The translations under genes and the position numbers were made by a program. From positions 3,330,490 through 3,394,489 of the forward strand of contig OZ316893.1 in the NCBI GenBank assembly GCA_973895155.1: 64,000 bases of DNA, in the 5' to 3' direction. The notes below the pieces were generated by a model. It was not told the DNA's origin. It saw only the letters and a list, made by a program, of their open reading frames with translations, and searched no databases. Source of the DNA: Marsupella aquatica. Taxonomy: Eukaryota; Plantae; Marchantiophyta. Shown piece by piece: positions 1,814-40,426 of this stretch (positions are counted from its first letter, which is position 1; every line of letters starts with the position of its first letter).

Positions 1814-4800
1814 CCTGCTTTGTTTGTACAGTCGTGACGGAGACGATTTGGAAGTCATGCTCGGGGAGGGTAATACGGCATTATCTAGGGATGGCCCCTG
1901 CAGACCATAATTTAGCTAGAAAAGCTGGTTTGGTTCCATGTTTTGAACTCGACTGGCCCAGAGTTGCAATTCCTGCTGTAAAGGAGTTTGCAGTAGGGTA
2001 TGATCAAGGTCAAAACTGTGTGTCATTCCGGGGTGCAACTCACACATTCAACATAGAGGTATTGCGAGCTGCATTTGCTTTTCCGTCTGGAGAATGGGCC
2101 CAATTTAAACCTGGGTTGGTCCAAGGTCAACTAAATTCCATGTTTTCTGCCAAGACGAAAGGCAACCCATACAGTTTAGACAAAATCACTGCACCATATA
2201 TGCAGTGGTGTGGGATAATCAGGGCGATTTCTGAATTGCTTTCAGGCAAGAGCAAACCCACTCAAATCACCTCAAAAGACATGTGGGTATACTGGGCGTA
2301 TTGGTGGGATACGATTAGGGTACGTGATCGTTTTAGAGGAGCTAAAACTCCCGTGGTGAAGCCCGATTGGGCACATTTGGTGTACGATAATCTGACGAGT
2401 GAGATCCTCAGGTTAAAGTCACACCTATCGAAGAATGGTGTCATAGACAAACGACTTCCTTGCTACTGTGGCACTGCTATAACGCAGATTCTTGTACACT
2501 ATGGGTATTCGCTGGAGGAGCTTATGGTCAAACAACACGAAGATGATCATGAGGAGGACGACAAGGAGGAAGGGGACAATGGCTCACAAGAGGACGAGGA
2601 AGGGGAGGCTGGCTCAGAAGAGGACGAGGAAGGGGAGGCTGGCTCAGAAGAGGACAAGGACGGGGACAGTGGTTCACAGGAGGACGAGGAAGGGGATGAC
2701 GGATCACGAGAGGACGAGGAAGGAGAAGATGGCTCATGAGAGGATGAGGAAGGGGATGGTGCGTCTGACGGTGAGGGGCAGCCATCAGAGGTTGCGCCCC
2801 AATTCTCCAGGGATGAACAGAAATGTCCTCAGGGTGAGCACAAATCGCCGCCCTCTATGCCAGAGTGCATGCGTGTTCTATCATAGCACATACGTGCGCT
2901 AGAGGTTGATCTTGCAGAAAAATCGGACATGCTACAAGAAGCAGTGGAGAATCATAAAAAAATGGTCCTCGATTTGATGAAAGAAAACGACAGACAGAGA
3001 GTCCGCATATTAGAATTGGAAAGGCAGGTTGGGTTGCATTCAGAACAAGTTGGCAGTGAGACATCGAGTGGAGAAGGTGAGAGCGGAGGTGACGAGAGAT
3101 GTTGTGAGGTTCTGGTAGGTCTTGGTGCCAGGGTACATGTAGGTTATGATGCAGAGGCATCACAGCGTAGCCCAATTTCAGAGTTACCGCCAGTTTCTGG
3201 TGTTCTAGCTATAGTAGAGGTACCAGCAGCAGCACCAGCAGAAGCAGGTACTTTCCCAATTTATTATCCTGGTGTTCCAGCTATAGTAGAGGTACCAGTA
3301 GCAGCACCAGCAGAAGCAGGTACTTTCCCAATTCATTATCCTACTTCAAAGATACAGCGAGAGGAGTCTATGTCGAGTGGAGGTGACTCACCAGTTTTGG
3401 TAGAGTTACAGGCAGCCGCACCACCATTACTGGCAGAGGTACCGGCATCAGAAGAAGAGATGTCACTTTTAGAAGGAGAGGCACCAAATGCTGCACCAAC
3501 ATCAAAAGTAGAGGTCTCAGCTACAGAGGAGGACAAATCGTCAGGTGCAATTGCATCAAAAGTACCAGGGTCACCTCCAAGTTCTGTTCTATTTCATGTT
3601 CCAACTAAGAGTCCGGGATGGGAGGCTAGGATGAGTCACACTTCACGACAACCAAATTTTCCTCGTGCTTCAAAGAGAGGGCGAGAGGACTCTATTCCGA
3701 GTGGCAGTCACTCACCAGCGAAGAGGAGGGCTATCAAAGTGGAGGAAGAGGAAGAGGTAGAGGAAGAAGAAGAAGATGAAGTGGAGGATGACGAGCATTC
3801 AGAACAAGACATTCACTGGGAAGAGTGTGCCACAGAGAGTGGAAAGGTTAGCGATTTTTTTTCCTTTGTTGTGTGATTACTGTTTTTTCAGAAACAATGT
3901 TCAAGCATATCTAACTTGGCTATGAGCGGGATCCGCAGATTGATATCCAAGGGTCTCACTTGACAGAGGAGGCATGCCCTCCACCTGGTATAATGACTAC
4001 AGCTCTATATCCACACCAACGGATTGGTCTTGCATGGATGTTGGAACGCAAATCCGGAAAAAGCTCTCCAATTGGTGGGATGTTGGCGGATGACCAGGTA
4101 CAAAAGCCCCCAAATTAAGCCGAAGTCGCACTCATTATTTTCATTCAGCGGGATACTTTGGGGGTATTTTTGGAGTATGTTAGGGGTACGCGTGCACCTT
4201 GTCTGCAAGTGAGTGGGTCCCTGACCGTTTTCTCAGCTTGGATTTTTTTAGGGAATGGGGAAAACCATGCATGTCATAGCGCTATTTCTTGCGAATCGCC
4301 CTCATAAGTGTGGGCCAACTCTAGTTGTTTGTCCAGCCAGTGTGGTGATTCAATGGGGCCAAGAAATAGCTGCAAGGACCTCCAAGATAGCAAAAGTGAA
4401 GGTCCTCCTCTACCACAACAAGAGGAATAAAGACATCAACTTTATTTCAAGCCATGACGTGGTTGTCACTACGTACTCAATCATGACAGGGGAGTCTCCC
4501 ATTGCTCCAAAGATCCAGCGTGCCAAAAGGGAGTATGAAGAGACCTGTAAAAAAACCTAGACTTGCAGGTCCACTGTTTAAGATTAATTGGCTTAGAGTA
4601 GTCCTGGATGAGTGTCATGTCATGAAAAATAAAACTAGTCAAAATTTCAAGGCCTCGTGTTGTCTCAAGGCAGAGAGGAGGTGGTGCCTAAGCGGTACAC
4701 CCATACAGAACGAGGCTTCTGATCTGTTTCCTTACTTCATTTTTCTGAGGTATTATCCTCTAGGAGAGTGGAAGGAATTCTCGCAGTTAAAGAAGCTGCT

Positions 4801-6620
4801 GAAGACAAGGCCAAAGATAGCGAATGACATCCTCTCAAAACACTTGGTTGCGATTGCGCTCAGGAGAGACAAAAGCAAGCGTGCATGCATATATCATGGT
4901 AGAGTTCACTTTGTTTAATCCCAAGCCTGATTTCTTTATCAATTGTGCATTTACCCTGCCACTGTGCTTACATGCAAGCATACTCCCACTGCCCCCTAAG
5001 ACGATCGAGGTGCAAATTGTTGAATGGAGAACACAGCAAGAACGAAACGCTTATTTTGATCACTGGGAGGAAAAGAGTAAGGAGTTATACAAGGTACGTA
5101 AGGCTCTTAATAATCCCCAATGTTGAAGACGTATGAGAGTTCAATTTGATCCCTTGAAGGTGTCTGTTTGGTGGCAATTAATGTGCCTGTAATGTTGTAG
5201 GAATTCCGTGACGCCGAAAGAGGTGCCTTATCGAATGTGTTGAGCGTTCTGCTCCGGTTGCGACAATTTGCAGTGCACCCAAAACTTCCTTCCTTATGTA
5301 AAATTCGCGAAGAGGAGATCAGGAACAAAGTGCAAAGAACGCCCCTTAGTGAGCCTCAACGAGCCCGACTCGTGTCAGAGTTTCAGCAATTGAAGATTGG
5401 AAGTGCTTGTGTGGACTGCAAGGTGAGTACAGTCACTCTGTGTATGGGGTATGATTGGGGTATGATTGGGGTATGATTGAGGTATTGCAGTTAACGTGCT
5501 TTGCCTAACAATTTCTGCACGCACTCACTTTAACGGTTGGATTGTGCAGGGGGGCTTGATTGGAAGTCCATTTCAGATTTCTGGCTGTGGCCATGTATAC
5601 TGTGGCATTTGTGCAATAGACCGGGAAGCTGGAACCTGCAAATCGGCAAAATGTTCAAAATACGTGACAGCCCAGGTCCTATACAGGCCAGCTGTTTGAG
5701 GCTAGTGAATGGTGGTGCGGAGTCAAAAGGGAAGGCGCGAAGAGAATATGATGTCCGACACCCACCTTCTCCAAAATTTGATGCAGTCTTGGAATACCTG
5801 AAGTCGATTCCGTTGGACACTACAGGACAGGGCAGCAGCAAAAGCTTTGTGCCCAGGCAGAAGGCTCTTGTTTTCTCACAATGGACTTCGTGTCTCGACA
5901 TGCTTGAGCCACACATTCTGAAGGCTGGTCTAAAGTTCACAAGGATTGATGGAGGAATGAATTCCAATGTCAGAGAACAAGCCTTGAATGATTTCAAGAC
6001 AACCCCAGAGGTACAACCGTCATTATCCGTGCAGATCGGTGTCTGTATTTGTTCAAAGGGTAAACTCTTTATATTCTAATTAAACTATTTCTACTCATTT
6101 CATGCAGATCAGCATTATCCTCTTGTCCTTGATGGCAACGAACACAGGACTCAACATCATTGAGGCTACACATGTTCTTATGGTAGACGGGTGGTGGAAT
6201 CCCACGGTCGAGGACCAGGCCATTGATCGGTCACATCGTATAGGGCAAACAAGGCCGGTGAAAGTCGTCAGGTTTATCGCCGAAGATTCGATTGAGTTGA
6301 AGATTTTGGAGCTGCAGGTAAGATTAGAAGTGCTTGCGTGGACTGCAAGGTGAATAAAGTCACTCTATGTATGGGGTATTATTGGGGTATTATTGGGGTA
6401 TTTCAGTTCGCGTGCTTTGCCTAACAATTCCTGCACGCACTCACTAGTAATGATGAATTACGAATTCCATATATGTGGTCTCTAATTGTACGCATGTTGC
6501 ATGTTTTGTGCAGAACAAAAAACGAGTGATGATCAGGGACATCATGTATGGCTGTGCAACCGGGGAAAAAGATAACATGGAACAAAATCTGGAGGTCATA
6601 CTGGGAGAGAATTGGTAGTA
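1814..6620 (+). pseudogene. Fusion of a TE accessory-type domain, acidic/coiled-coil linker and SNF2-RING helicase (FRG1/FRG2 = CHR27/28, Ris1-like)
   Basis: 1834-3846 is one frame with two stops (TGA 2737, TAG 2884). It is spliced (GT 3847/AG 3938; GT 4098/AG 4251) to LYPHQRIGLAWM..GGMLADDQ|GMGKT, then PTLVVCPASV, WLRVVLDECH, RRWCLSGTPIQN, LLRLRQ, RING (CVDC..CGHVYCGIC..C..C), KALVFSQW, WWNPTVEDQAIDRSHRIGQ. Frameshifts near 4550 and 5699. 5' end cut by LTR X. Confidence 0.85.
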
Positions 6621-7238
6621 GAGGTTCAATGCATCAAAGTAGCTAGATGAGTTTTAGCTAAGGTTCTCTTCGGTGCTTGAGTCAGTTAGGCAGTGACACT
6701 CTTACTGTTCGTTTACTTGTCAGTGCCACTCTCGTTTCCTCCCGTTATGATTTTAGTGTAGCGGGACAACGATGAGACTAGGAGGACAGAGCTTGAGTGG
6801 GTCTTTCCTTGCCACATATGTACCTGTTCGAGCCTCCTGCGGGAGCATTATGAATCGAACACTTCATATTTGAATCATGTCCACTGTTTCTCATGTCCAC
6901 TGTTTCTTTGGTATTATTTCTTGTGTTCTTTTGTGTGTGTTTAGGGTTTAGGTTATGCACTTGCAAGACACGCCGAATGATTACCCTAGGGACATAGGTA
7001 ATTTACAAGCATAGTAGCCCGTCCACTACAAGGAGATTTGGTTCCCTACTAAATATGGGACAAATACCTTACCATGAATCGCTTTGATAAGAGGGGAATG
7101 AATTCCCAACTCATCTTCTGGAAATTACCCCCAATAGTAAGGGGGCGGGGAGCATGAGGTACGTTGGGGTTAATTTCCCTACTTACCCCCTATATTCCCC
7201 TCTTTCAAACTCCTAACCTTGCAGATCTTCCTTGTGCA

Positions 7239-7724
7239 CAACCTTGTAACCCAACAAATAATGATGATACTTCTTACAAGCGTAAATGATACCAAGAGCC
7301 TCCCTATCGGTAGGTGAGTAGTTCTTCTCTGCCGGGGCCAACTGTCTACTGGCAAAGTAGATGGGATGGTCCCTCCCATCCTCATCCAACTGACTCAAGA
7401 CGGCACCGATGCAAAATCCTGATACGTCTACGTAAATGTGAAACTCCTTATTCCAATTAGGCGTAATGAGTATGGGAGCCTCTAGCAAACGTTTCTTTAG
7501 TTCATCAAAAGCAGCTTGACGGGGAGGAGTAGGTTCAAATTCACTTCCCTTCTTCAACATGGATGTGAGTGGCATGGCTACTTTGGCAAAGTCCTTGATG
7601 AAGCGGCGGTAGTAGCCGACGCACCCCAAGAACCCTCTCACTTCTTTCACATTTTTGGGAAACGAGACTGCCACCCACACTGCCACCTTTTCACGATCCA
7701 CCTTGATGCCGCGAGCAGACACCT
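7239..7724 (-). mobile_element. pol: Ty3/gypsy RT-RNase H fragment of family Y
   Basis: Nearly identical in protein to element Y 30185-30670 (VSARGI..FLGCVGYYRRFI..VDVSGFCIG..NYSPTDREAL..GYKVV). Truncated on both sides at TG/CA-like junctions. Confidence 0.9.
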
Positions 7725-9204
7725 TGTTGGAGAAGTTCTCTTTTTGAAGAACCTACAAAACCGGGATCAAAAGATTCAATTACTTTATTGAAGAAAAGAA
7801 AAAGAAAAACATCATGTCTAAATCTTTGTGAGCCAAGAATACTGAACAAGACTCCAAATATTTGTGAGCCAATAATCAAAAAGATTCAATGGGAAGAGTT
7901 AACCCAAGGATCTTCGTTCCAAATTCGACAACACAAGTATGCCAATCGATGATACTTGTTTTGATCATCACGACAATAATTACACAAAGAATCAACAGAA
8001 TGCAGACAACCACTCAAATAAATTCTTGACTGAATTGGAACTCCTTGCTCATTCTTTTTGCAAAACTCAATCGGAGCGGATTGAGACTATCTCGAGGATC
8101 TACGCCTCCCATCCAAAGCGCTCCTAATCCAACAGGAAGCACTTTGAGTTCAACTAATCTCTTATACAATCGACATGCACGTTTATCTCGGTTTTGAATC
8201 TGGACCGTCATTGAACTCACGGTTGAAAATGTAAGTCTCAAAGAAAGCTAAAGCTTTAATAGTTCATCAAGTGCTCCAAAATGGCAGGCTCGAAGGAAGC
8301 AAGAGCTTTTGTCAAGGTTGATCAGAACCTAGCATGCAAAACCATCGTCAATACTTGAGATATCTTTCGCCATCGCAAAAAAGCTATTGCTGAATACCCG
8401 AAGGGATACGCCGTATCCCACTTCGCATTCAAACTTTGCCTTTCGGACCTAACCTGATTGATATTCAGAGGTTGAATATCATATGGGATACCGGGTATCC
8501 CACTTCGCATTCAACATTGAAATTTCCTGCATTTTTCAACCAAGAGCTTCTTATGTAGAGGTTGGATGCGAAGTGGGATACCGGGTGTCCCACTTGGCAT
8601 CCAACCTCTTTTTCTCATGTTTCGTCATGCCATAACTGGATTTTTCAAGATTGAATCCCAAATCGGATACGCCGTATCCCATTTGGGATTCATCCTCGTG
8701 ATTTCCAAAAAGATATATTACTCACCTGTTTTTGTAGTCTAACTTGGGGGATACGAATATGCATACAGAGTGTGGATTCGTCGGTAGCAAGCGAATGCGG
8801 GAGCAAGAAGAAATGAGACAAAAAATTTAAGTCGGGGCTCTCCTATTTATAGTTTCCCCCCGACCATGATCAGTTTCTAACCATAGTTTCGTCGAAGTCA
8901 ATTAAAAGTGACCGTTAAAAGGAATCCTCTAGGAATATTTTTGATGGGTAAACCGTACTCACCCCTTTTTATTGTGTTTGTTGGTTTTTTTTTGTTTGAA
9001 AACTGCGGTTGGATCCAAAATGGGATACGCCGTATCCCTGCTTCGGATTCAAGTCATTTTTTCCCGTTTTAAAAATCTAAAATCTGGGTTATTAGAGGGA
9101 ATACTAATTCAGTATCCAATACTTTTTTGCCTTAGAATTTTTTTCCGCCGCGGGCAAAACGAGAAGTGTGGTCGTTATGTTTACCAAAGTTTTACCTACC
9201 AATA
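7725..9204 (-). mobile_element. Putative LTR-like repeat with palindromic GGGATAC-N3-GTATCCC motifs
   Basis: Starts TGTTGG where pol homology ends. Minus-strand TATAAATA at 8844-8851. Five copies of the hairpin motif at 8400-9040. No TSD found; right boundary tentative. Confidence 0.35.
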
Positions 9205-9327
9205 GCTTTAGTCATTGTGTGGATATTATTAATGTTAAAGCCAAACCGGAGACTATGTAGATATGTTACTTAGTTACATATTGTTTATCACCTAACTCAT
9301 TGTGTGAACTGGAGTCAAGGTGGAGAT

Positions 9328-9738
9328 TGTTAAGAATTGACTCGAGTTCCCGACTATAGTTAGTTTGGCCTCACTAGGGTTAATTGACCCTTGGTTAGTT
9401 TAGGATAAGATACACTTATTTAGGCCCACACATCTTAGTGCCCCTTGGGGGGTATAGGTTGGAGGGAGAGCATTCTCTCCCTCATTCTTCACATGTTCAA
9501 TCTCATGAGCTATGGATCCTTCAGGATTTTCTCCATGATCGTGGTGTCTTGTTGGTGTAGTGTGAGATTGAGTGCTCTCATGTTTCGCATTGCTGTCTAG
9601 TCTGGAGCTGACAGTTTCCTACACGTGATATTGTCAGTGATTATGTGCATGCAATGATTACGGAGAGAATCATGGGGACAAAGGAACTCGCTGCATGTCT
9701 TAGATAGGGATTGAATCTCATCTCACCTTGGCACAACA
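9328..9738 (+). mobile_element. Copia-type 3' LTR
   Basis: PPT-like AAGGTGGAGAT immediately before TGTTAAG; ends CACAACA. Confidence 0.55.
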
Positions 9739-10445
9739 AAAATCGTTTTTATCCTGTGTTCATGGATTCTGTTTGAAGGCAATTGACAAAATGAGAACTG
9801 CCCAGAAATTAAGCTAGTGTAGAGGAGGGACAGAAAAAAGAGGACAAGACATCTCGAGAACCATAATCGAGAAGGTAATCTGAGTCCAGGCACCAAGCTC
9901 TTCTCTAAATGACGAGATAATTAAAAACATTGTACAACAATGCTTTGTGAACGGGATTTGTTCCCTTTACTGTTCAGGGTGGAAGTGTTGTTCTATCAGT
10001 TTGCGTTTTAAGCACCATTTACGGGCTTTACACATAAAAATTATCATGGTCGATCTTTTGAAAGTTGCGGTCTGAAGTTTGTTCTTTTTCAATTCTTCCA
10101 CTTGATCCGAGAGAATCGAAACACTGTCAAGATGTACTTATTATAATCATAGGAGTACGCTCGGAGAGATCACAGAGCAATATTTAATTCAGGATTGTCA
10201 CATCTCATGACAACTCAATGTGTACACTGCTTTTTTGTCTCCATATGGCAATATGTGTTTTTGATGAGTGCTCACATTACAGTGCTGCAAATTTTTGATG
10301 GCGACTGATCATATGCTTCTTCTCCGGAGCTGTCTAATACAGTAACTTCTATTCCAAAAAGCATCACATCTGGAACCGTTTTAACAGGTGCGGCATGGAA
10401 TTCGGCCAGATGGACACGGATGTGGGTGACTGTCATACACTGAAT

Positions 10446-13226
10446 TCAGCCTTTTTGACTATCTGTTGCCTCAGCAGACTTACCCTTCTGAGGAAGGTAC
10501 AACTGGTAATTGTACTGGTAGAAGTATGCCGCGACTAGAAAGACTAGAAAGTCTACTCCACAAATGGCGGCGAGAACCCAGTAGTAATTTTCGAGACCAC
10601 CGTCGTTGAAGCGCTCGACCAACCAACGCCCGCCTTTCTGATGCTTGGTCACACTGTTGGTGACATTCACCAGCACCGAGCTGAGGTAGTAGCCCAACGA
10701 TAACGCTGCGAACGAAAACGTGATCCCGATGCTACGAGTGTTATCCGACACCTCATGGTAGAAGAACTTGTAACTCGCCAAGACGACCCCAAACTCCGCC
10801 ATGGAAGTGAAGAAATACTGCGGAATGAGCCAATACATCTTCATCGGGAGCTCGAAGAATAGGGAGTGCGTGTATCCCAGATCGCGAACGTATCCCAGCC
10901 GCTTTCTCTCAACAAGTGCGGCGACGACCATGGCCAAGCACGTTGAAATCAGCCCCAGTCCGATACGCGTCAAAGGGGTAATGCCGAACGGATTCTTCGT
11001 CATCTTCGTCAAAATTGGCCGAATGATAAAGTCGAACAGAGGTACAAAAACAACAGCGACGATAATTCCAGCCACACCTAGAGATTGCGCGGGTAGAACG
11101 AAGTGTTTGCTCAGAGCCCGGTTGAGAGTTTGGCCCTGCTGTGCCGTGAAGGTAATCACCTGGGAGAACAGAAGGGAAACAGAGCACGTGCACGTCCAGA
11201 CCGGCACGATCAGCAGAATTCTCTTCGTTTCTTCGACCTGCGTCACACCAGCTAGCCTCCACCGATTCCCCGTGCTTGCTTCATTCTCTATGATTGCCGC
11301 CCTGTCCAGACCTGCATTGGTTGGGGTTGAATCGAACAAACTCATCAGTGGCCGTTTAAATTGACTTTGAAATATATCGGTGCGTTAATGTGCTCACCTG
11401 TGTACCTTTAGATTCGTTCTACAACCCCATTGTGGCTTCTACATACCTTCAACTCTGCTTCATTTGATCATTTGCTGCAGATTTCTGCATTGAAACAGGT
11501 CACAGTACAATCCCAGACTGACTCCAGCTTAGATTAATCAAGTGATATATAATTACATTTCCCCAACCTCAATTCAATTGAACGACGATCCGAGAAGGAA
11601 ATCGCGTACTACCGTAGCTTTGTTGATCTTTCCAGCCAATCTCCAGAAATGGGAGCGTCGTAGAGACTGCTAGTGGCTTCGGGAATGACCAACTTCCGCT
11701 TTGGAAAGGTCGCAACTGCTACCTGTACCATGCGCGTTATGAAGAGCCTTCCCGAGGGCCTCTTGAGTCGATACTTGGGCGTACCGACGAGGAAGATTAA
11801 GAACGCCACTACGAACAATATCAGCAGCCAAGCAAATCCCCAATGTTTGCTCACGTAACTGAGAATGTAGACAGGGAGGGTGAACGAGGTCAGCAGACCA
11901 AGGTTCTGAGCAAAGTAGTACCAAGTGAAGTAATGCACACTTTGCTTCTTCTCTACTGGGTCCGATTCATTAAATTGCTGAGCCCCAAGCGCAGGTAAGG
12001 CTGCTTTGACGAAGCCAGATCCAAGAGCTATGGTATACAGAGCAACATAAATTGGCGCCATGTATTTTGTTCCTGCCTGCGGGCACGGTGCCGTCGGCGT
12101 TGGCGTACAGGCTGGAGGCTGCAGCCCCGAATAATCGGAGGTGACGACGAGAACCCCCAGTCCCTGGATTGCCAAAAGCATCTCAAGATTTGAATCAACA
12201 AGAAGTCTGAGTACACATATTTCTTCACGCCACGCATTTCGGGAGAGTGGATAGCAAATTCTCAATCTCTTAAATAGAAGGTTTGTTCAGCAAAGCACTA
12301 TGTGACAAGACTTGAAACTGAGCATGTCCATCTGAACATGAAACAAACCACTACAGTTATGGACTTTCGAAATCATAACATTTCTAGCTTTTTAAGATTG
12401 AATTATGGATGAATGTACTGCGATGGAACCTCCACGGTCACATATACTTAAACTAGGATCTTATACTTCTGCACGAACTTGACGGTAATGAAACGTAAAG
12501 TGTGCACTACGAAGTTGAGCTGGTATTACTCGTGCATGACGCCGACAGACTGCGCTTGTAGAATGCATTCATTAGAGTTGAACTTACAAGTATTTGGATT
12601 ACTGCGCCAACGACAGTTGTAAAGTAGTACCCTAGATAGCTGTCTGCCAGGAAGCCCCGTAGCACAGAGACAACAAAGTAGGTGCCTGTGAAATCGTTGG
12701 CGATCGTTCCCGCATTGGAAAAGCTCTGGTGGAGATACTTGTTAAGGTAAAACAACAAACCGACTGTGAGGGAGATCGAACAGACCGAGTCCGCAGTGGT
12801 TAAAGCTGCAACAAGATCAAAAATGCCCCAAATCAGCCACTGTGCGTCATACCACCAGACCTTACATTAACTAGAATCCTACATACTGTAGGTATTGTAC
12901 ATAAAGCTACAATCGCGGAAGGAAGAATAACATATGGGTCGAATAGAGGCACTAGTGATTCTGCATTATTTTTCGGAGCGGCAATCGGACGTGTTTTCGA
13001 GCTTTCTGAAGTTAGGTCGAAGGTCTGATCAACCCGTGCAAATACCATAAACATATATTGCGGCACTCATTCGCCCAGTTCTTGATTTGTCGCTTAGACG
13101 GCCCCTCAAAGTCACTGCATCCGAATGTGTGCCGTCCACATATTTTTTGCTGGTATTTCCAGGATCCTCCACGTCGTGCTGGCCTGAAGGAACAGGAGAA
13201 GGTGCGGAATGGATTTGTTGAGACAT
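10446..13226 (-). CDS. NPF: NPF/PTR (POT) family transporter, copy 1 (possibly frameshifted); exons 13226-13046, 12805-12588, 12163-11613, ~11311-10446
   Basis: GFLADSYLG, LYTIALGSGFVKAALPALGAQQF, QVEETK, ITPLTRIGLG, MVVAALVERKR, WLIPQY, FFYHE motifs; GT-AG introns; paralog of 48460-51258. Confidence 0.88.
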
Positions 13227-14105
13227 CTGCAAGGAAGCATGTTGAAGATTTCCAACAAAAGAGACAGCATTAGAAACATTCTCCTGAAACGAGAAACAAA
13301 TCCGTGATACGAGTATGCTTAATTGAAAATCGATTCCTTGCGAAAATCCAGGACTATCATGCATGGTTTAAAAATACGAGGTGAATCACGGTTGCAAATG
13401 TTGGCCATGGCACGTAATTAAGGAAGTGCTCAGAACAGTTGTGCCGAAGATTACGCAGGAACCCAAGCTCCAATTCCTTTCAGTCTCATGACCAGACATG
13501 CTCGCTCTCGCTTTCACAGTTTACGCTTGAAGTGGCTCACATTTACACGCAAAAAGAAATTGCAGGTCATTCGGGGTCTCGAATCAGTTTTGAACGTCAG
13601 GGATGACAAGAAGTCAGTGCTGTTCTTCCAATTACAATTTTTCCGGACTTGCAGAGAGAAACTTGAAGAATGGATGAGAAAGTTAAACAGACCATGAATT
13701 TACTTATATAATCACAGACTCTCGTCTTAAGATGAGCTCCTCTTTTCTGATAACCGAAGTTTACTCAAAATCGGACTCCTAGACAGCTGAAGGGCGTAGA
13801 CACCTACCACTGGAGATTCCAAATATCAGTACTCCAGATGAAAGATATCGATCAGGTTGCCTACTCTGAACGATGTCAGTGCGTTTTCTCCTGCATATCG
13901 CAACTTCGTTGCTACTTGTCCAAGCTAAAGTAGAACTTACTGAGGCCAAGAATGATAGGTTTCTGGTCTATAAATCCTCTTACGTGTGGACTTGGCTTGG
14001 TTTTGAGACAGCAAGTCTTTCCTTCGACGAGGCTATGGCAGATCTTGAAAATATATATTATTCAGGACTTAGCTACTTTGCAGTGTTGCCCGGATCCTCT
14101 CTCTG

Positions 14106-31600: not shown

Positions 31601-34600
31601 ATGGAGGTGGATCCTTTGTCACATGGGCCATTATTTCTTCAACGTCAGATTCTTTGTAATGTGACAATAGCTCCTCTCTAAAGTCATCATCCAGGATGTC
31701 ATTCAAAAACTGCTCTCTTTGCTCATCATCAAACATGATCGTGTGGGCTTGCATTTCCACCTCCTCGGGGTGATCCTCTCCCTCCCTATCATGAATCTCT
31801 AGAGGTTCAGCCTCCACAATTTTGCTTCGCTCGTCTTCCATCTCTTCTAGAACAGCGTGCACTTGGCTAACTGATTCCTCTACTGCATGCTCTTGAGTAG
31901 CAACTCCGGGGCCAAAAACATCTTCCTCCGTGAGGTGAGAAATCAGTTTCACCATGTATACTTCATCCTCGTCTTCATCTGAGGTGACCTCTGAATCATA
32001 TTCCTCCTCCATAGTCGTAGTCTCCCCGTGAGGTGACTCCGCTGACCATGGAATAGTGATAGTGGGGATACCAAACCGAAACTGCCGTTTGCCCCAATCA
32101 CTTGTGACCTTGGCCACATACAACCATGGCCTGCCAATTAAAATGGGAAAACCGTACGGCCGAACGGGTCGCATCACCAAATAGTTGAGGGGGAAAGATT
32201 TTCCCCCAATCATTGTTGGAATCTTGGTGAGACACCCCAACGGCACCACCCGTGCACCATCAGCCAACCTCATGGCACGTGCCGGTGGTTCTAACTCTGT
32301 ATACCCCAACCGGTTTGCCGTCTCCTCAGTCATGATGTTGACTCCCGAGCCCCCGTCCACCGGTACAAACCGTATTGCACATCCATTGATGTCCACCGTG
32401 AGTTCTGGGGCACCCAAATCCTCCGTGACCCAGTTGACTTGTATGGGGTCAGCCCCAACTTTGGGTAACCTTCTTCTACGTCTCCTCCTCATGAGAATCT
32501 CCTTGACTTGGCGACGGTATAGGGAGCTATCCCGTAATAGTTGACCAATTGTGGCACTGACTGGGCAATCCAGAATGTCTTGAGCAATGTTGTACGCGGT
32601 TGCAGGAGGTATGGGTGGGATGACCTCTTCTCCCGGTTTCCAACGAACAACCCTCTCCTCCGCTTTCTTTCTGGCCTTTGCCTCCTCCATGTCTTTGTCA
32701 ATGGCCGCTTGCATGGCTTGTGCTTCTAGCTCCTCCAACTGCTTACGTACCTCTTCTCCCACCTTCGGATAGAACAACTTGGGGTTGTCCCGATCAAAGT
32801 CACTATCCTCCATGGGTGGCACCTCCGGTTCGTGTGAGGTACCCGATGTGGAAGCTTGATGCACCTCCTTGTACTTCTGCTTGAGCTCGGACTTGCCCTT
32901 CTTTTTGCCGGATCGAGTGGAGACTCGGTAACAAGAGTAATGCCTTCTCTCCTCGTCGCTGTCTTCCTCCGGTAGATTCTCAGCATGAGTCCACTCATGA
33001 CTTGGGGGTGAGGGGTTAGCAACTTCAACTTCCGTAGATGTTGCAACAACAACCACCGGTATCTCAACAACTGGAGATACTACAACGACTAGCGGTACCA
33101 CCTCCTCCGTTATGGTGGTCATCCTTTGCTTGGGAATGTTCACTACGGTTTCTTCTCTTCTAGTGATTAGAGGGGTGTCGACTGCTTCCGTGGTGAGAAA
33201 GTTGACGCTAGCTTCTTTCAGAGGAGGTGGCGGCCCCTTCTTCTCTTGTGCCCCAATCGGTTGAGCCTTGAACGCCTCCAAGGTTGGGCAGTGTGGTGCA
33301 AGATGACCCTCCCCCTTGCATAGTTGACACAGCCGGGCAAAATCTCCATTGCCTTGACGGGTGGGCTCTGGGCACACATTAGCGTAGTGGCCCGCCACTC
33401 TACAATTGTAACAAATAGGGATCTTCCTCACTCCAGGGTACGGTGGTCGATTCCCTGGGTTAGCGTTGGGATAGTTGGAGTATGCGGGTGCTCCGGCGTT
33501 TGTTGAAACTCCATGAATGCTCCGTGGTCCCGGGTTGAGAGGTTGTACACTATACACGTTGGCCTCTGGTGGCTCCTCCATGAAGTACTCTATTGGCCCT
33601 TCCGCTGCATATGAAGGATTTGAGTAGCTTGCCCCCTCAACATCCTCCTCCCGTACTTGGAAAACCTTGGCTGGTTCTCCCGCTGGGCACTCCTTCGGGG
33701 CATGACCAAACTTCATGCACTTGGTGCACCACACATTGGCTCTCTCCACCGGAACTTTTCTCCTCTCAGGTTTGAGTCCGGCAAAATGTACTTTCAACGC
33801 TTTCATTTGCTCCGTCAGCTCATCATATCTGGCCTCTTGCTCCTTCAGGCGTCTTGCCGTAGACAATGGTGTAACGGCCACCGTGGGTAGTATCACTTCA
33901 CGGTGAGAGGACTTCTTGACTTTCTTTGACAACTTCTTCTTCTTCCTCCTTCGTCTTTCAGCTTCTGACTCCGTAGTGTCTGACTCTGTAGTACTCTCAG
34001 AATCCTCAGATTCATCACTACTATCTGAATCAGATCCACTCGACTCCTCACTGGAGGAACTGTCAACCGGCTTCAGCTTCTTTCTTCGGCAACGCTTGCT
34101 TGTGGCATCAGCTGCGGTGTATGACTCCGCTGCTGCAATAGCTTCAGCCAATGTGGTTGGCTTGGCTTGACGTACAAAGAACCCCATCTTGCTTGGTAGG
34201 GCAGCCACAAACCAGGCTTGACGCATAGCATCATCGGTACGGGCTTGGATCCGACGTACCAGCTTTTGGAACCTTTGCAAAAACCTCCGTAATGACTCCT
34301 TCTTCTTCATCCTGAGTTGGCCCACCTTTAATAGTGAGGTGGCCTCCACTCCTATGGATCTGAACTCCTTCAAGAAGGCTTGCTTGAACAGAGCCCAATC
34401 AGCTTTCACGTTGGCCAACAACGAAATGAACCATGGACCTGCCTCCCCTCTCATCATTCCAGGAATGATAGTGAGCTTATGTGCAGACTCCCCATTAGCT
34501 TCGGCAATCCCTTCAAACTCCTCAATCCATTCGTCTGGATCATCCTTTGGTCTCCCCTTGAAGGGTACGTACTGAACACGGGTACGTTGTGCAGCTGCCA

Positions 34601-35009
34601 TCGGTGCAGCCGGTGCCTGTATCAACACAGGTGGTAATGGCGCTTGTTGGGCCACCGGTAACAGCACCGATGATAGGTGTGAGATGATTTGTGGCAATGC
34701 AGTGAGCTCTGGGATCAGATTTTGTAACTCAGACTGCACCAACACAAAGGGCTCTCCTTCTTCTCGCTCGTGATCTATGTCTGGCTCTTCGTCTGGGCAT
34801 ATGGCCTCATTACGTTGAGCCTCTTCCTGTTGCACACCAACTTGTTCTTCCAGCACCAGTGGCAACCTCCTCTCTTCTGCAAGCCGTAAGCGTTCTTCGG
34901 CAGCAACTCGTCGTCTGGTCCCAATCCAAGAGGGCCCCCCTTCTAGCTCTGATCTTGGGGTACGTGTGTGTTGGGGACTTCCTCTACCTCCCCTTCTCCC
35001 TCTCGGCAT
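28611..35009 (-). CDS. gag-pol: Gag-Pol polyprotein, 2132 aa (Gag, 3x CCHC, PR, RT, RH, IN)
   Basis: Knuckles CTKC..H..C, CYNC..H..C, CQLC..H..C; PR VDGGSG; RT FLDGYSGY, MPFGLCNAP, FIDD; RH VDVS..DREAL..TDH; IN HH-CC, WGVDF, SDRG, TERAN, GPY. Confidence 0.97.
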   Translation of the reverse strand: MPRGRRGGRGSPQHTRTPRSELEGGPSWIGTRRRVAAEERLRLAEERRLPLVLEEQVGVQQEEAQRNEAICPDEEPDIDHEREEGEPFVLVQSELQNLIPELTALPQIISHLSSVLLPVAQQAPLPPVLIQAPAAPMAAAQRTRVQYVPFKGRPKDDPDEWIEEFEGIAEANGESAHKLTIIPGMMRGEAGPWFISLLANVKADWALFKQAFLKEFRSIGVEATSLLKVGQLRMKKKESLRRFLQRFQKLVRRIQARTDDAMRQAWFVAALPSKMGFFVRQAKPTTLAEAIAAAESYTAADATSKRCRRKKLKPVDSSSSEESSGSDSDSSDESEDSESTTESDTTESEAERRRRKKKKLSKKVKKSSHREVILPTVAVTPLSTARRLKEQEARYDELTEQMKALKVHFAGLKPERRKVPVERANVWCTKCMKFGHAPKECPAGEPAKVFQVREEDVEGASYSNPSYAAEGPIEYFMEEPPEANVYSVQPLNPGPRSIHGVSTNAGAPAYSNYPNANPGNRPPYPGVRKIPICYNCRVAGHYANVCPEPTRQGNGDFARLCQLCKGEGHLAPHCPTLEAFKAQPIGAQEKKGPPPPLKEASVNFLTTEAVDTPLITRREETVVNIPKQRMTTITEEVVPLVVVVSPVVEIPVVVVATSTEVEVANPSPPSHEWTHAENLPEEDSDEERRHYSCYRVSTRSGKKKGKSELKQKYKEVHQASTSGTSHEPEVPPMEDSDFDRDNPKLFYPKVGEEVRKQLEELEAQAMQAAIDKDMEEAKARKKAEERVVRWKPGEEVIPPIPPATAYNIAQDILDCPVSATIGQLLRDSSLYRRQVKEILMRRRRRRRLPKVGADPIQVNWVTEDLGAPELTVDINGCAIRFVPVDGGSGVNIMTEETANRLGYTELEPPARAMRLADGARVVPLGCLTKIPTMIGGKSFPLNYLVMRPVRPYGFPILIGRPWLYVAKVTSDWGKRQFRFGIPTITIPWSAESPHGETTTMEEEYDSEVTSDEDEDEVYMVKLISHLTEEDVFGPGVATQEHAVEESVSQVHAVLEEMEDERSKIVEAEPLEIHDREGEDHPEEVEMQAHTIMFDDEQREQFLNDILDDDFREELLSHYKESDVEEIMAHVTKDPPPSRPDQEESDAPVYGGMRLARLEETFDEETRNKLDVIRPEQYTKVEVGEGKTLNIGSKLDATEQRTIQELLKEYQDVFAWSHQDLKGVPPEFGEHSIDLMSGARPVRQRQYRLNPKYSLMVKEEIDRLLDAGFIYPVMHSEWVSPIVIVPKKKGPDGKVKIRVCQDFRKLNDATKKDHYPLPFTDIVLDMVAGWEIYSFLDGYSGYNQIWIREEDQLKTAFTTEWGIFAFRRMPFGLCNAPGMFQRLMMNIFHDFLRRFLEIFIDDFAVYGKRVKHPEHLRLTFQRCRETCLKLHPEKCFFGIEEGILLGHKVSARGIEVDREKVAVWVAVSFPKNVKEVRGFLGCVGYYRRFIKDFAKVAMPLTSMLKKGSEFEPTPSRQAAFDELKKRLLEAPVLITPNWNKEFHVYVDVSGFCIGAVLSQLDDDGRDHPIYFASRQLAPAEKNYSPTDREALGIIYACKKYRHYLLGYKVVFHTDHNSLKYMVNKPDLSGRIARWVLLLQEFNYEVRVRSGKSHSNADFFSRIEGASDSQEIDDRFPDEEVFSVNTEATTWYGEILEFLRTARVPSRLGPERAAVFLRKTGPYLLVKGVLHKYGMDGRLRRCLEEAEIRTVMAALHEEEAGGHFARETTARKILDAGYWWPTLFRDVHRYIQRCDPCQRQGKPGPSSRHPLVPILPLAPFEKWGVDFIGPFTPITRRGRKRYIILATDYATKWVEARATAKDDANTTARFLYEQIFTRFGPPLELVSDRGTHFLNHTIERLTENYLISHRKTTPYHPRANGLTERANGIMGKILNKTVSAHKTDWDLKLLAATYAYNLAHKTTTGHSPYFLVFGQHSLVPVEFEVPTIRILTREREGAEESVASRIQQLEQLTETREEALTHTEQEQGKRKSHYDSRLRRVSIEEGDLVLLYDSRFMHFPGKLHTRWMGPYVVDAVYSNGSVQLKTLEGQLLNTRINQERLKKYYTEEEYGARGGASQLREELCDGYPVTGSHT
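28647..28660 (-). promoter_or_regulatory. Polypurine tract of Y
   Basis: TAAGAGAGGAGCTA immediately 5' of the 3' LTR TG, inside the pol reading frame. Confidence 0.75.
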
Positions 35010-35226
35010 CCCATTGAGACCTGCATTCCAAACTTACACCAATGTCTCAGAAAGCAATATTTGTAAACATCAACCGTCGCACGATGCGTTGTGGTTGACG
35101 TACAATAACAAAGTAACCAACAAACTTCTCACGTATCAACCGTCGCAAGTTGCGTTGTGGTTGATAGGTTTGAACTCCCAATAGACGTAGCTCCCCTCCT
35201 TCGTGTCGTCAAACAAGAAGAAGGAT

Positions 35227-35244
35227 TCCCCGGCAGCGGCGCCA
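35227..35244 (-). promoter_or_regulatory. Primer-binding site, tRNA-Asp
   Basis: TGGCGCCGCTGCCGGGGA, complementary to the plant tRNA-Asp 3' end (..UCCCCGGCAACGGCGCCA, one mismatch); Athila-type PBS. Confidence 0.85.
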
Positions 35245-35264
35245 AAAACAAAAGACCACACTTA

Positions 35265-38200
35265 TGTCACTTGCCTCTCCAACGGTTAATACGTGCAAAC
35301 CGCACTTTTCTTCGCTTAAACCGTTGGTATCGTATTACGGGGTCGTGGAGGGACGCTATTTGGATTCTTTTCACACCAGGATGAGTATTTTGGTTTCCGC
35401 TCCCGGAAATGTAGGTTTTGATCAAGTCTACCGACTACCCTCACCCCACAGCTTTTGATCAAGTCCTGCCGACTACCCCACTACACCTTCACTCGGAGTC
35501 ACCCAAAGAGTGCTGTCACCACCCCTACTCACAAGGCCGACTCAAACCAAGCAAGTTTCTTCAAATCATAGAACGGGAGAACACAATTCGGAAAGCGAAA
35601 AAGGGAGAAGGAACACACAACAAAAGCCCATCAAGTCAAATGTACAGATCCATATCTCTTGGGAAAAAACGATACACATTGCATGAGTAACCCGGCCTCC
35701 TGCCGTCTACTCAACTCCTGCCTCTCCGGACAATGAGTATGGCTCCCCCTCACTACTCTGAACACGCTTTCAAACTCCTCAGGCTCCACTCTATCCCTCC
35801 TTGCTAACTTCACACTGAGTCCCCCTAACTACTTCGGGGCTATCCCCCTAAATACTGAAAAATCACACCAAAGCACCCCTCACAGGGTCACAACGGTGGC
35901 GGCTACCCTAGCGGCGCCGCTAAAACCTTGCACTAAGAGAAATCCTTAAACTGAAGAGGAGCATGCGGCACACACATGCTGCTAAAACCCTAAACCCAAA
36001 ACAAGGGGGCCGACGGTGCCTTCGACGGCGCCCCAACAGTACACGTGAACCCTGAAAGTGAGAGGCACCCCAAAATGGCCGAAACTAGGTGCCCTTCCAA
36101 GTGCACACCTGAGCTCACCCCTGGATAGCTCTTCTTTTCCTGCTTCCGAATCACTAAGTCGCTCCCTCAACGGACTTCAGACGCCTGAGTTATGGCCGTT
36201 TCCGTACCGCAAAAACATAAGTTCTCCAGGCCATAACTTGCTCATCCTGGCTCCGTTTGAGGAGCGCCGCCTCTTGTTGGAATCAGCTCCGCGAGCTCAT
36301 CCCAACAAGCCCATGAGTGACCCCCCACTAAAATGTTGGAAATCTGGAGGCCGTACACCCACGTCCGTACGCCTATCTAATCCTCCTCTTCTTCTTCGCT
36401 CTCGGTGCCCGGACTTGTGCCCCGTGAGTGGTCCTCCTCCTCATCACTCACGGGAGTGAGTGCCACCGTACTTTTCTTCTTCTTCGACGGAGTACTCTTA
36501 GTGCTGCTGCTCCCGCGCTTCCTCAAAGCAGCCAAGGCCTGCCACGCCTTGATGTACCCCTCACCAATTGTGTCCTTCCAGAGGGTAGCCTCTTCTCCGG
36601 ACCGCAACTCCAACGGTAGAACTTGCCCCGTGGCCATGGGAGTCCCGGGGGTGACAGACCTGGGTGGCATCCCCGTACTGACCTGAGCCTCCCGTAACGA
36701 TTTCCGTACCTCCCGGAGCTTCTTCTCCAAGCTCTTACTCTTCTCCTGACTCTTCTTGGCTCCATCCAACAAGGGTCCATACTTCCCACTAACCTCCTTC
36801 ACCACCATCTCGATAGCTTGGGAGATCACATCCGGGGAAAGTGTGGAGCCAGGTGTGCCGGGACTCTTCCGTTTCCCTAGACTCAGGGCCTCACTTCTCT
36901 TCGCTCGTGTCTCAAAGGCTGCCACCTGACTCCGTAGTGCTCCCACCTGGTTCCTCCACTCCATCACTTCTCCAGAATTTTGCTTCTCTTTGGCCAATGC
37001 TTGCCTCAACGCTCCTACTTCTTCTGCTTCCTTGGCCTTGGTGGACAAAGCTCCCTTCAAGTTGGTGATCTCTACGTGAGCTGCATTGATGTGCCTGACC
37101 TTCTCATGAATGGTCTGCTCCTTGGTCTTGATCACCTCCTTCAGTGACAGGATGCTCTGCTCTAACGTCTCTACTTTGACTGTGGCGTGCTTGAGAGACT
37201 CCCTCAATGCGTGGACTAGCTTGAGTCCCTCGTGGACTCCCTCTCTGAAATCCCGTAGCTCTGCCAAGTAAACATCCGGAATGTTGTATTCCAGAGGCTG
37301 TTTCGGATCTCCCACGAGTGATTCAAGCCACTCCAATGTGCAATCATCCTCCTGGTTCTCTTCTTCTCTATTATCCTCCCCACCAGCAGACAATGATTCC
37401 TCCGTGAGCTTCCCTAAAACGGTAGTGGCAATACTCCGGATCTCCGTGGTGAGAGATGATCCCGTGTCTTCATGCCCCGGAGAACCAATCAACCCTTCTG
37501 CCCTGGCCAATACAAATGACCCCATCAAATGTACAGCCCCACCTGGTTTCACACTCCCGGGCTCAGCGGCCAATAGCTTCTTCAATCCGTAGCACCACCA
37601 TCCGTACACATGGGCTGGGTAGTTCTTGATGTCCATAGCTACCACGAAATGCTCCTCATTCAGCACTCCGGATTGCACGTTGCCAAGAACCCGTTGATGC
37701 ACCTTGGCCAGGAAGCCCTTATACTCAACATCCTTGACAGCAGAAAGAGGGATGGCGGTGGTGGAGGTAGGATTGGTCACCCAAGTGGCCACCATTTTCA
37801 ACGTGAGTTCTCCCCTGATATTCCGAGGTGTGAATGAGAATTTCTGATTCTCAAGAAACAATAGCTTAGCCAACTCCACATGGGGCACTACACGTTTGAG
37901 ACATTCAAAGTAGATTCCCTCCGTTCGGAACTCCATCCCGGCCTCAATGTCCCAGCTCTTCCCTGAAGGGATGGTAATCTCCACCTTCATGAATTCTGTA
38001 AGCCCGGTGGCTTGGAAAATGTTCCGACAATCCTCCATCACCTTGGTGGAGGTCTTGGGATAAATTCGACGAAAAATCTTCCTACCCACCGGTGAGGAAC
38101 CCGCTGCCAATCCCGTGCTCATCATAACTTCTCTCTCTTCCCTTTCCCGTGTAATCCGAGTCTCCACGTAGTCACGGTAAGCAGCCTTGTATCTCCGAAT

Positions 38201-39343
38201 GCGTGACGCACTAAACTCTGGTTGATCTAGCATCCATGCATCCCGAAATCAATTTCTCAATCACCAATCCCGTCACCCGTGGCAATGTCAATTCCCTGGC
38301 CCGAAACAGCCCCCGTAGCCCGATCACTTAAATTCTCTCAATTTCCCGTCACTACTCCGTGCGGCCGCCACTAATGCCTGGAAGAATGACGCCAGCAAGC
38401 CCCACTAATCCACCATGAAAGAGAGAGCTTCAAAAATAATTAGAATCTGGAGAGAGCTTTCGGCAAGAGAGAGAAGAACCCCGTTTTTGCTTTCGGCAAT
38501 GAGAGGGTCGTGCAAAAGGAAGAGGGAAAGAAAAAGGAAGGAAAAAAAAATAGAACCGAAAAAACTCCTGGCGCCTTCGCCATGCGCCCCGGCCCATTTC
38601 TCGGGCCTTACCCTTGCGTCCTCCTGCGCGCGGCCCTATGCAGGGCGCGCGGCCATTCCTCCCGGCTCGCGGGAGGCCCTTCAACTCCCCCCCGCTCGCG
38701 TGATCCTCCCAGCTCGCGGGAGGCCCTTTAACTCCCCCCCGCTCGCGTGATCCTCCCAGCTCGCGGGAGGCCCTTTAACTCCCCCCCGCTCGCGTGATCC
38801 TCCCAGCTCGCGGGAGGCCCTTTAACTCCCCCCCCCCGCTCGCTTGCGCTCCTTCAGCTCGCGGAGCCTCATTAATTGCCCGGGCACGCAGCCCTATGGG
38901 CTCGCGAGGCAGCCCCTTCAGCTCGCGGAGCCCCATTAATCGCCCGGGCACGCAGCCCTATGGGCTCGCGAGGCAGCCCCTCTTTCTCTCGGACGGCCAC
39001 TAATGGGACTCGCCCTCCTGAGGAGGGATTTATTTAAAAAAAAACCCCCCCCTCTCCTGACTTTGCAATGGGGGTCTCAACAATAGCTCTTGAAGCAAAA
39101 CGGTAAGTCCTATGGGGCTGGTCCTGGCTAGTTTCAAGGTCCCAAAATATTTGCCCACTTAGGTCGCCGCAAATCTTAGAACTATTATGAGAGAAAGAAT
39201 ATAAAGTCACCTGGGGCATCATCAACCTATAATGACGGAATTAACTAAAAATTAAAAAATGGCTTATTTACATTGACTATTAACAAGGTATCGGCCTTTG
39301 CAACCAGTTATGTGTGACTTCCCGTGACGGGGTACCCGTCACA
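35265..39343 (-). repeat. 5' LTR of Y (4079 bp)
   Basis: TG..CA direct repeat followed by PBS. Confidence 0.96.
36377..38233 (-). CDS. LTR-encoded 618-aa accessory protein, 5' LTR copy
   Basis: Translation identical to 25631-27487. Confidence 0.85.
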   Translation of the reverse strand: MLDQPEFSASRIRRYKAAYRDYVETRITREREEREVMMSTGLAAGSSPVGRKIFRRIYPKTSTKVMEDCRNIFQATGLTEFMKVEITIPSGKSWDIEAGMEFRTEGIYFECLKRVVPHVELAKLLFLENQKFSFTPRNIRGELTLKMVATWVTNPTSTTAIPLSAVKDVEYKGFLAKVHQRVLGNVQSGVLNEEHFVVAMDIKNYPAHVYGWWCYGLKKLLAAEPGSVKPGGAVHLMGSFVLARAEGLIGSPGHEDTGSSLTTEIRSIATTVLGKLTEESLSAGGEDNREEENQEDDCTLEWLESLVGDPKQPLEYNIPDVYLAELRDFREGVHEGLKLVHALRESLKHATVKVETLEQSILSLKEVIKTKEQTIHEKVRHINAAHVEITNLKGALSTKAKEAEEVGALRQALAKEKQNSGEVMEWRNQVGALRSQVAAFETRAKRSEALSLGKRKSPGTPGSTLSPDVISQAIEMVVKEVSGKYGPLLDGAKKSQEKSKSLEKKLREVRKSLREAQVSTGMPPRSVTPGTPMATGQVLPLELRSGEEATLWKDTIGEGYIKAWQALAALRKRGSSSTKSTPSKKKKSTVALTPVSDEEEDHSRGTSPGTESEEEEED

Positions 39344-40426
39344 AGTATGTTGACGCGCGTCGTCATAATTCCTGACGAACTTCGTCATGTCCTCCCCGTA
39401 GTACCTGCAAGTGTTCCAGGGGAGGGAGGCGAGGTGCTTGAATCCCTGAGTCTTCAGGTACATCGCATGCTTGGGATGGAGGATGTTTTTGTGAACGTTT
39501 TCCCCCATGCGGTGCATCGTCACCTTGGCTATGGCTACCGTGGCCAACGGTAACCCGGATGCAGTGGCGGATTCCTTCCTCTTCTTCCCCCGTGACTGGC
39601 TCGGGGAAGGTGACACCTCCCCATCCTCCCGATCGGGCCTAGGTAGTGCCACTGCCGTTAGTAACGGGCCCGGGTCGGCCACGGTCACCATGTTGTCTGT
39701 CGGGGCCGCTCCTGGGGTCAGAGCAGGGGGTGGGGACGATATAGTGTCGGCCCCCTGAGCGCTTGTTCCTCTGGGCCACCTGGTCAAGGGTGGGGTAGCC
39801 TCGTCGTCATCGCTAAGATCCATAGCGTTGATGATGGAGCGTACTTGTGCTGGCTGGGCGATCGGTGGTGGGGTTTGGCTAGGCTGCGGCTGAGGCTGAA
39901 GCTGAAGCTGAACCTGAGGTTGTATAGGTACGGGTACGGGTACGGCTGAGTTGGTCATATTGGTTGATGGCCGAGTTCCCCTGAAGCTCTGTAGGTGCTG
40001 GTAGAAGTTCTCTGAAGCGAGTGCAGACGACCTTGTCAAACGGGTAGTGCTGGACTCGCTATTGATGATAGCCCAAACCTGAGCAGGGATGTGGTCGAAG
40101 TGATGTCGTTGCAAGTCGATCGTACCCGGGATATTGAAGACCTCATCCGGAAGCCGAAGCAATGCTTCCCAGAACCCGATATATTTGTCTCCGTTGAAGA
40201 AGTACCCAGATACCTCTGCTGGTTGGTAAAGCTCGCTCTGAGACGGGTAGTCAAAGTTAAGGATGTAGTGGTGTCGTCCTGCTAGGCGGATGGCTCTCTC
40301 GTACTCGCGTTCGATTTCGTATCGGCCCGGGTTGGCGTGTTTCAATGAGTCGGCCAAGTGCCTTTCGGTAGATAGGAACTGCATCCAGAATCGAATGGCC
40401 GAGCTAGAGAGGATCGTGTGCGACAT
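39344..40426 (-). pseudogene. LTR-X accessory ORF, 5' part (361 codons), interrupted by Y
   Basis: ATG 40426; globular N-terminus, Q/P-rich linker, RGKKRK NLS-like motif, start of the conserved domain. Confidence 0.85.

Follow-up and report, generated by a model that had tools for sequence, protein, structure and literature searches.

Long reading frames within long terminal repeats and a predicted SNF2 fusion gene in a nest of retrotransposons from Marsupella aquatica

The window analysed here, a stretch of 64,000 nucleotides from Marsupella aquatica (Marchantiophyta; contig OZ316893.1, positions 3,330,490 to 3,394,489), is a nest of long terminal repeat (LTR) elements in land-plant DNA. It encodes three proteins of interest: X and Y, which are LTR-borne, and F, an SNF2 fusion. 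A complete, young Ty3/gypsy element (the Y element, 39343-24519) has inserted into a sequence of the X family (40893-22065), both on the minus strand, and X and Y each lie within an LTR of their own family. A second, incomplete X-family LTR (1-1813, plus strand), 94-95% identical to the first, ends just upstream of F. The LTRs of X and Y share no alignable sequence and therefore represent separate families. An earlier reading of the letters alone (the original prediction) had described three proteins with one architecture, and all three do exist, each with a globular-looking region, a low-complexity linker and a coiled coil. The idea that they are encoded by free-standing genes was rejected.

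The Y element is bounded by a 5' LTR of 4079 bp (35265-39343) and a 3' LTR of 4128 bp (24519-28646), which start with TGTGAC and end with GTGACA, and it is flanked by the target-site duplication ATACT within the domain of X. Between the two LTRs there is a single substitution, besides 49 gapped bases, and this near-identity indicates a very recent insertion. The open reading frame (ORF) of Y comprises 623 codons from stop to stop (25631-27502, minus strand, sense to gag-pol; second copy at 38248-36377 in the 5' LTR), lies wholly within each LTR (LTR positions 1160-3016, first ATG at 1160) and is open in both. The motifs quoted for Y in the original prediction (IFQATG, GLTEF, ELAKLL, YGWWC and GGAVHL) occur in both of these frames. 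The core motifs of the globular-looking region occupy 27274-26762 and are followed by an acidic linker, a coiled coil (26521-26141) and a basic/acidic tail. Upstream of the ORF, GC-rich tandem arrays (27911-28284; a 47-nt unit in 4.8 copies and a 64-nt unit in two) are candidate binding sites.

The gag-pol of the Y element is a single frame of 2140 codons (28611-35033, minus strand) encoding gag, zinc knuckles, protease (PR), reverse transcriptase (RT), RNase H (RH) and integrase (IN). The frame runs into the 3' LTR and stops there after 36 nt, so that no internal 3' region remains. The TG..CA LTRs, the target-site duplication and the order gag-PR-RT-RH-IN identify it as Ty3/gypsy. A Pfam scan of gag-pol detected neither a chromodomain nor an additional RNase H, which fits the Athila clade, as it does Phygy and Selgy, and so is not specific to Athila. 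An Athila-type extra ORF lying past pol and ahead of the 3' LTR is absent from the element, whose ORF sits in the LTR instead. A candidate primer-binding site (PBS; 35227-35244, minus strand), which may resemble the tRNA-Asp PBS of Athila-type elements, starts at a distance of 20 nt from the 5' LTR, not within 5 nt of it. In Diaspora/Calypso, the PBS is described as beginning 5 bp past the LTR (PMC1142308). Exact look-up of five Y and gag-pol variants in a sequence collection found none of the five, and a metagenome scan with Y and a viral-contig scan with pol returned no locus. A fragment of RT and RNase H at 7237-7727, with 90% identity to the pol of the Y element and a ratio of non-synonymous to synonymous differences (pN/pS) of about 0.05, belongs to a related gypsy family.

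The X-family sequence has TGTGAC..GTGACA ends and its own 5-bp target-site duplication (AACCC) and lacks gag and pol; it is therefore read as a solo LTR, of 3999 bp once the nested insertion is subtracted. From the same termini and 5-bp duplication, its unseen parent would also be a Ty3/gypsy element. The ORF of X has about 880 codons and is split by the Y element within the globular domain. The 5' part (39344-40426, minus strand) encodes an extra N-terminal region, a Q/P-rich linker, a basic KKRK stretch and the start of the domain shared with F (from 39478), and the 3' part (22960-24518, minus strand) encodes the rest of this domain (to 24100), a P/T-rich linker and a coiled coil (about 23523-23008). 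About 315 residues precede the shared domain, where the original prediction had placed an extra N-terminal domain, and the first 159 of them have no Pfam match. A TATAAAA box at LTR position 360 lies 108 nt before the ATG at 468. In this solo LTR the frame carries in-frame stops at 23128 and 23017. The second LTR copy (1-1813) has lost most of the shared domain and the linker by a deletion with a 5-base microhomology; this microhomology, together with the lack of GT-AG ends, ruled out splicing as the cause.

F starts near 1834 on the plus strand, right after the LTR copy at 1-1813, and is predicted to have eight exons in the order domain-coil-SNF2-RING-helicase. A likely splice acceptor near 1830 opens onto its globular domain (1834-2532), which leads into a linker and coil region (2533-3846) with acidic 10-residue repeats, a coiled coil (about 2926-3037) and a low-complexity region, and exons 2-8 (3939-6620) carry the SNF2 ATPase, the RING pattern and Helicase_C. 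A GT-AG intron of 92 nt (3847-3938) joins the domain exon in phase to the seven later exons, and these in-phase splice sites predict that the domain and the SNF2 exons form one gene. Seven GT-AG introns could be placed, with six of the seven junctions in phase when indels seen in public sequence runs (four, X1-X4) are counted, and junction 3 uncertain. The SNF2-RING module that had been proposed for F held for SNF2 (Pfam E 1e-14 and 4e-20) and Helicase_C (2e-6 and 5e-9); the RING is readable as a C3HC4 pattern across exons 5-6, and Pfam gave no RING match on the two pieces of F scanned, the second of them being out of frame with the RING.

The window copy of F is dead, with premature stops at 2737 and 2884 and frameshifts near 4513 and 5694, and an intact F in this copy was rejected on these grounds. 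The public runs differ from the window at both stops (4/4 runs) and carry insertions at the two frameshift sites (4/4 and 3/4 runs), and a contig of run X1 that matches 1814-3226 holds 919 further bases beyond 1814; it is therefore probable that open versions of F exist and that the gene has an upstream exon. A palindromic GGGATAC..GTATCCC unit, with hairpin arms that extend further, is repeated five times at 8378-9038, some 1.8 kb past the end of F; these repeats may represent the end of a transposon or a hairpin repeat of dispersed type.

The original prediction placed X, F and, more weakly, Y in one family, and for X and F this was confirmed. An exhaustive search with the F domain gave 23 matches at E<=0.001 among 1.84 billion representatives, of which 21 are alignable relatives (31-66% identity) that fall in separate 50%-identity clusters. 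The family profile consists of the F domain and 25 database relatives: P0022 and P0023, which are spurious repeats, were left out of it and of alignment A2, P0021 was left out of A2 and P0018 out of the profile, and the cluster members P0025, P0026 and P0028-P0030 were added to the profile. Against the whole of X this profile scored 21.7 bits across the insertion site, a value reached by 0 of 1000 local shuffles (hhalign 74.6%), and against the whole X domain z was 6.9 (0/150 shuffles). Among 365 frames of the window, the 3' half of X ranked first after F itself (E 0.003). The two proteins have in common the core GL..F...W....V.EF..GFD.....FRG......LR.AF.LP.G, with a weaker DWA..V...L..EI match later, and this places the predicted globular domains of X and F in one family. 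Single-sequence local alignments gave p 0.0075 for F-X, 0.20 for F-Y and 0.047 for X-Y.

The remainder of the architecture is common to all three proteins. By our own heptad score compared with shuffles, a heptad stretch is present in Y and X (0/100 shuffles each) and in F (1/100), and all three carry basic stretches that match the pattern of a nuclear localisation signal (NLS). The same layout was found in the F relatives that extend past the domain, as 7/7 of those tested have a heptad stretch after the linker (0-2 of 60 shuffles). The F relatives are 40-479 amino acids long and show no SNF2 match, which is a weak indication, as their gene calls look unspliced. Word-based homologue searches with F (longer proteins), Y and X found nothing, genome- and viral-contig scans with F relatives gave no locus, and single-sequence AlphaFold models of Y and F had pLDDT values of 32.0 and 34.7, too low for fold searches.

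The explanation proposed here, to which we give slightly less than an even chance, is that X and Y are nuclear DNA-binding regulators that oligomerise through their coiled coils and sustain the expression of their own element in the face of host silencing. X would be transcribed from the LTR promoter, given the TATA box upstream of its ATG, and Y by analogy; the protein would then enter the nucleus, oligomerise, bind repeated sites in the LTRs of its own family and keep that family transcribable. Solo LTRs would retain the ORF, as it sits in the LTR, and could be complete genes. Y would probably play the same role for its own family as X does for its own, and anti-silencing by these proteins is plausible. 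F would represent an X-type reader domain placed in front of a SNF2-RING chromatin-remodelling motor, carried either as DNA-transposon cargo or as a host gene.

Several results weigh against this explanation, from the searches for known domains, from the position of Y and from the state of the copies themselves. The domains of X, F and Y match no Pfam family, including PF20167, PF03078 and PF10536, the plant mobile domain or PMD (0/3), PF04195 gave no match here, and PDB sequence searches returned no relevant match. One of the 23 database matches of the F domain, P0017, matches Transposase_32 in the stretch common to F and X (E 0.0046), at 17.3 bits against a Pfam cut-off of 45, and none of the 23 matches PMD or ATHILA. 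In the Atlas, two of the four listed rows have a score of 0.85 and contain ATHILA (17% of members) or Transposase_32 (94%), and scores under 0.9 are leads only. The likeness to Transposase_32 and PMD suggested in the original prediction hence leans to Transposase_32/ATHILA, on the weak signals of P0017 and the Atlas, and its PMD part drew no match. The domain of F and X is probably distant kin of the Athila/Transposase_32 accessory domain. The Athila domain may have a PMD fold.

The proposal also draws on published work on these domains, and the kinship might extend from Transposase_32 to PMD and VANC. A relation of Transposase_32 to Athila ORF1 has been described, and the domain is present in an Athila extra ORF with a predicted NLS (PMC11728184), and the main domains reported for the extra ORFs of Ogre, Retand and Athila are PMD, Transposase_28 and Athila ORF-1 (PMC6317226), the Retand ORFs encoding TRP28 and at times Smc-like coils (PMC11963269). 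For VANC, structural homology to the PMD protein MAIN has been reported, and both it and the Athila domain have been modelled as coiled-coil pentamers (PMC13547354); because of this reported homology, the comparison with VANC may be closer than an analogy. MAIL1 and MAIL2 are described as associating with specific DNA motifs and opposing Polycomb silencing (10.1101/2024.09.27.615353), and fusions of PMD with a phosphatase and with MULE transposases are known (PMC5418596, PMC12973397). A fuller version of the proposal, in which a VANC/PMD-fold anti-silencing gene moved into an LTR, making every LTR, solo LTRs included, a self-contained gene whose product, bound to repeats of its own family, keeps that family open in trans, with X, Y and F as one module-swapping family and F as a transposon-derived, sequence-targeted chromatin remodeller, seems distinctly unlikely.

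The position of Y is the second difficulty. Against the F-family profile Y scored 0.2 bits (37/1000 shuffles; hhalign 0.1%), like the controls, and its whole-domain z of 1.1 (21/150) was the same as that of the coiled-coil control from Y (z 1.2). Two-sequence profiles recovered the third domain in 0/6 trials, and a three-sequence profile found no further member among the 365 window frames. The profile comparison that could have refuted a kinship of all three thus divides them, joining F with X and leaving Y outside. These results favour the alternative that Y is unrelated to X and F and that the likeness is the common look of extra ORFs in plant retrotransposons, namely a helical domain, a disordered linker and a coiled coil, acquired separately; this falls just short of an even probability. 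The X-Y pairwise comparison with hand-picked borders was not significant under two matrices (155 and 48 of 1000 shuffles), and the extra ORFs of Ty3/gypsy elements are reported to fall into 314 groups without mutual similarity (PMC6317226). However, the corresponding F-Y global alignment was reached by only 4 and 13 of 1000 shuffles, a weak result not counted as proof because hand-picked borders bias such tests, and the order of motifs looks alike by eye. In addition, the F profile is shallow (Neff 3.9), which leaves room for a remote kinship of Y, and no relatives of Y were found from which to build a second profile.

Another alternative concerns F, which could be a host gene in which a retrotransposon-derived domain was domesticated onto a SNF2-RING helicase, possibly to silence elements, with the window copy being a dead one; we regard this as somewhat less probable than the separate origin of Y. 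It is favoured by the seven introns with their six phase-consistent junctions, by the runs' departures from the window at the stops and frameshifts, and by the surroundings, since no transposase was found next to F and no element terminus was recognised downstream in 6600-10400. The domestication of PMD is also known (PMC5418596). However, runs X2 and X4 contain several distinct contigs per F site, and runs X1 and X4 contain an F paralogue with 37 differences in 250 bases. The dispersal of the 21 relatives over separate clusters is likewise what an expanded family in rapid evolution would show, F extends at its 5' end beyond the window, and the palindromic repeats at 8378-9038 could mark the end of an element.

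The LTR-borne proteins might also serve the retrotransposition cycle itself, in RNA export, particle assembly, nuclear import or the tethering of integration, rather than anti-silencing. Comparison with the accessory proteins of retroviruses has led to proposals of such roles for extra ORFs (PMC7264820), and coiled coils and basic stretches are compatible with a cycle role and with anti-silencing alike. However, the intron-bearing gene F, in which the shared domain is joined to a SNF2-RING ATPase, points to chromatin, and the best-studied putative relatives, MAIN/MAIL and VANC, act on chromatin. A role in the cycle appears unlikely.

As regards X as a protein, the 300 codons compared between the two copies show 20 differences that are synonymous and 25 that are not (binomial p 0.0025), a synonymous excess that gives moderate support to the retention of X as a protein. 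The resulting pN/pS of 0.40 comes from two copies, is far weaker than that of the RT control (0.047) and could be inflated by third-position mutation bias; moreover, both window copies of X and that of F are broken. In the reads of the public runs, the depth in bins of the X LTR exceeds that in bins of F by tens to hundreds of times, a ratio that is not a copy number. That X is a decaying passenger trapped in the LTR and copied along without function is very unlikely: its window copies carry an insertion, a deletion and three stops between them and its pN (0.037) is not far below the divergence of the non-coding tails of the X LTRs (5.7%, or 0.057), but against this stand the synonymous excess, the loose ends of the public runs at 286 and 292, by which other X copies continue into the stretch deleted here, and the open 623 codons of Y in a just-inserted element. 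These alternatives are not mutually exclusive.

The window also contains features that lie apart from X, Y and F. A multi-exon membrane transporter gene, which we take to be of the NRT1/PTR type, is duplicated (10119-13926 and 48132-51968, 88% identical), and a lipase-like gene with a long low-complexity insert lies at 61237-62754 (Abhydro_lipase, E 8e-5). Degraded frames at 18456-19969 presumably derive from the gag and pre-integrase regions of a Ty1/copia element. Repeats include a dispersed pair of 299 bp (20042-20340 and 42758-43054, 92% identical), two arrays of a 24-nt unit with 7.5 copies each (43524-44747) forming inverted arms about 840 nt apart, as in a foldback or a miniature inverted-repeat (MITE-like) element, a degenerate purine-rich 18-nt satellite (53809-54950) with about 26 copies in its main array, and a perfect tandem duplication of 154 nt (58051-58358).

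The layout of domain, linker and coil is already known for the extra ORFs of plant retrotransposons (PMC11963269, PMC7264820), and the placement of X and Y inside LTRs is the more unusual point; neither this placement nor the pseudogene state of F in the window figured in the original prediction. Extra ORFs are reported to be common in plant Ty3/gypsy elements, their function still being open (PMC7264820, PMC6317226), and large plant LTRs are also on record, such as those of Ogre (1.9-6.5 kb; PMC6431247) and of Retrosat2 (over 3.2 kb), whose extra ORF is described as lying upstream of gag-pol (PMC3485330). The open-access literature yielded no precedent for a plant element with a long ORF wholly within its LTR, nor for such a domain fused to SNF2 or for SNF2 carried by a plant transposon, and absence from that literature is weak evidence. 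A gene borne by the LTR outlasts the formation of solo LTRs, which is the usual host route for deleting such elements, and LTR annotation pipelines take LTRs as non-coding. In addition, the natural fusion of an X-type domain to a SNF2-RING ATPase suggests a chromatin-targeting module.

Among known systems, the sag gene of mouse mammary tumour virus, a mammalian retrovirus, resembles X and Y in being a protein gene within the LTR (U3) that is doubled in each element; its product is a membrane superantigen with no known link to the proteins described here, and X, unlike sag, lies downstream of a TATA box. The SNF2-RING-helicases of the RAD5/RAD16 type, to which Arabidopsis FRG1 and FRG2 belong, share with F a SNF2 ATPase, a Helicase_C domain and, if the C3HC4 pattern of F is a RING, an inserted RING, whereas in F these follow a domain of transposon type, acidic repeats and a coiled coil. 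The extra ORF of Athila, like that of Y and presumably that of X, is a sense ORF of a plant non-chromovirus Ty3/gypsy element encoding a globular domain and a coiled coil and predicted to be nuclear, and the F family approaches it through the Pfam and Atlas leads to Transposase_32 (PF20167) and ATHILA (PF03078), which stay below the Pfam cut-off. However, the extra ORFs of Athila and of the other elements surveyed are described as lying up- or downstream of the polyprotein (PMC6317226), whereas those described here lie wholly in the LTR. In the Y element the gag-pol frame terminates within the 3' LTR. An element thus contains the ORF twice, and a solo LTR keeps one copy. The Ogre PMD and Retand TRP28 (at times Smc) ORFs similarly combine an accessory domain, sometimes with a coiled coil and nearby tandem repeats, with a proposed binding of DNA, but they are internal, and in Retand antisense, with Retand LTRs of 315-1194 bp (PMC6317226, PMC11963269). 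The MAIN/MAIL proteins and their fusions (the MAIL3 phosphatase, MULE transposases) likewise show a mobile domain fused to enzymes and exchanged between host and transposon (PMC5418596, PMC12973397); they differ from F in that the literature covered holds no SNF2 fusion among them and no sequence link from F to PMD was detected. VANC, like X, Y and F, is an accessory protein that evolves fast and joins a domain to a coiled coil, but it is encoded by the VANDAL (MuDR) DNA transposons of dicots and its anti-silencing activity is established (PMC13547354), whereas X and Y are LTR-borne and known from their sequence. If the link to PMD and VANC were true, sequence-specific anti-silencing by proteins would extend from the DNA transposons of dicots to retrotransposons.

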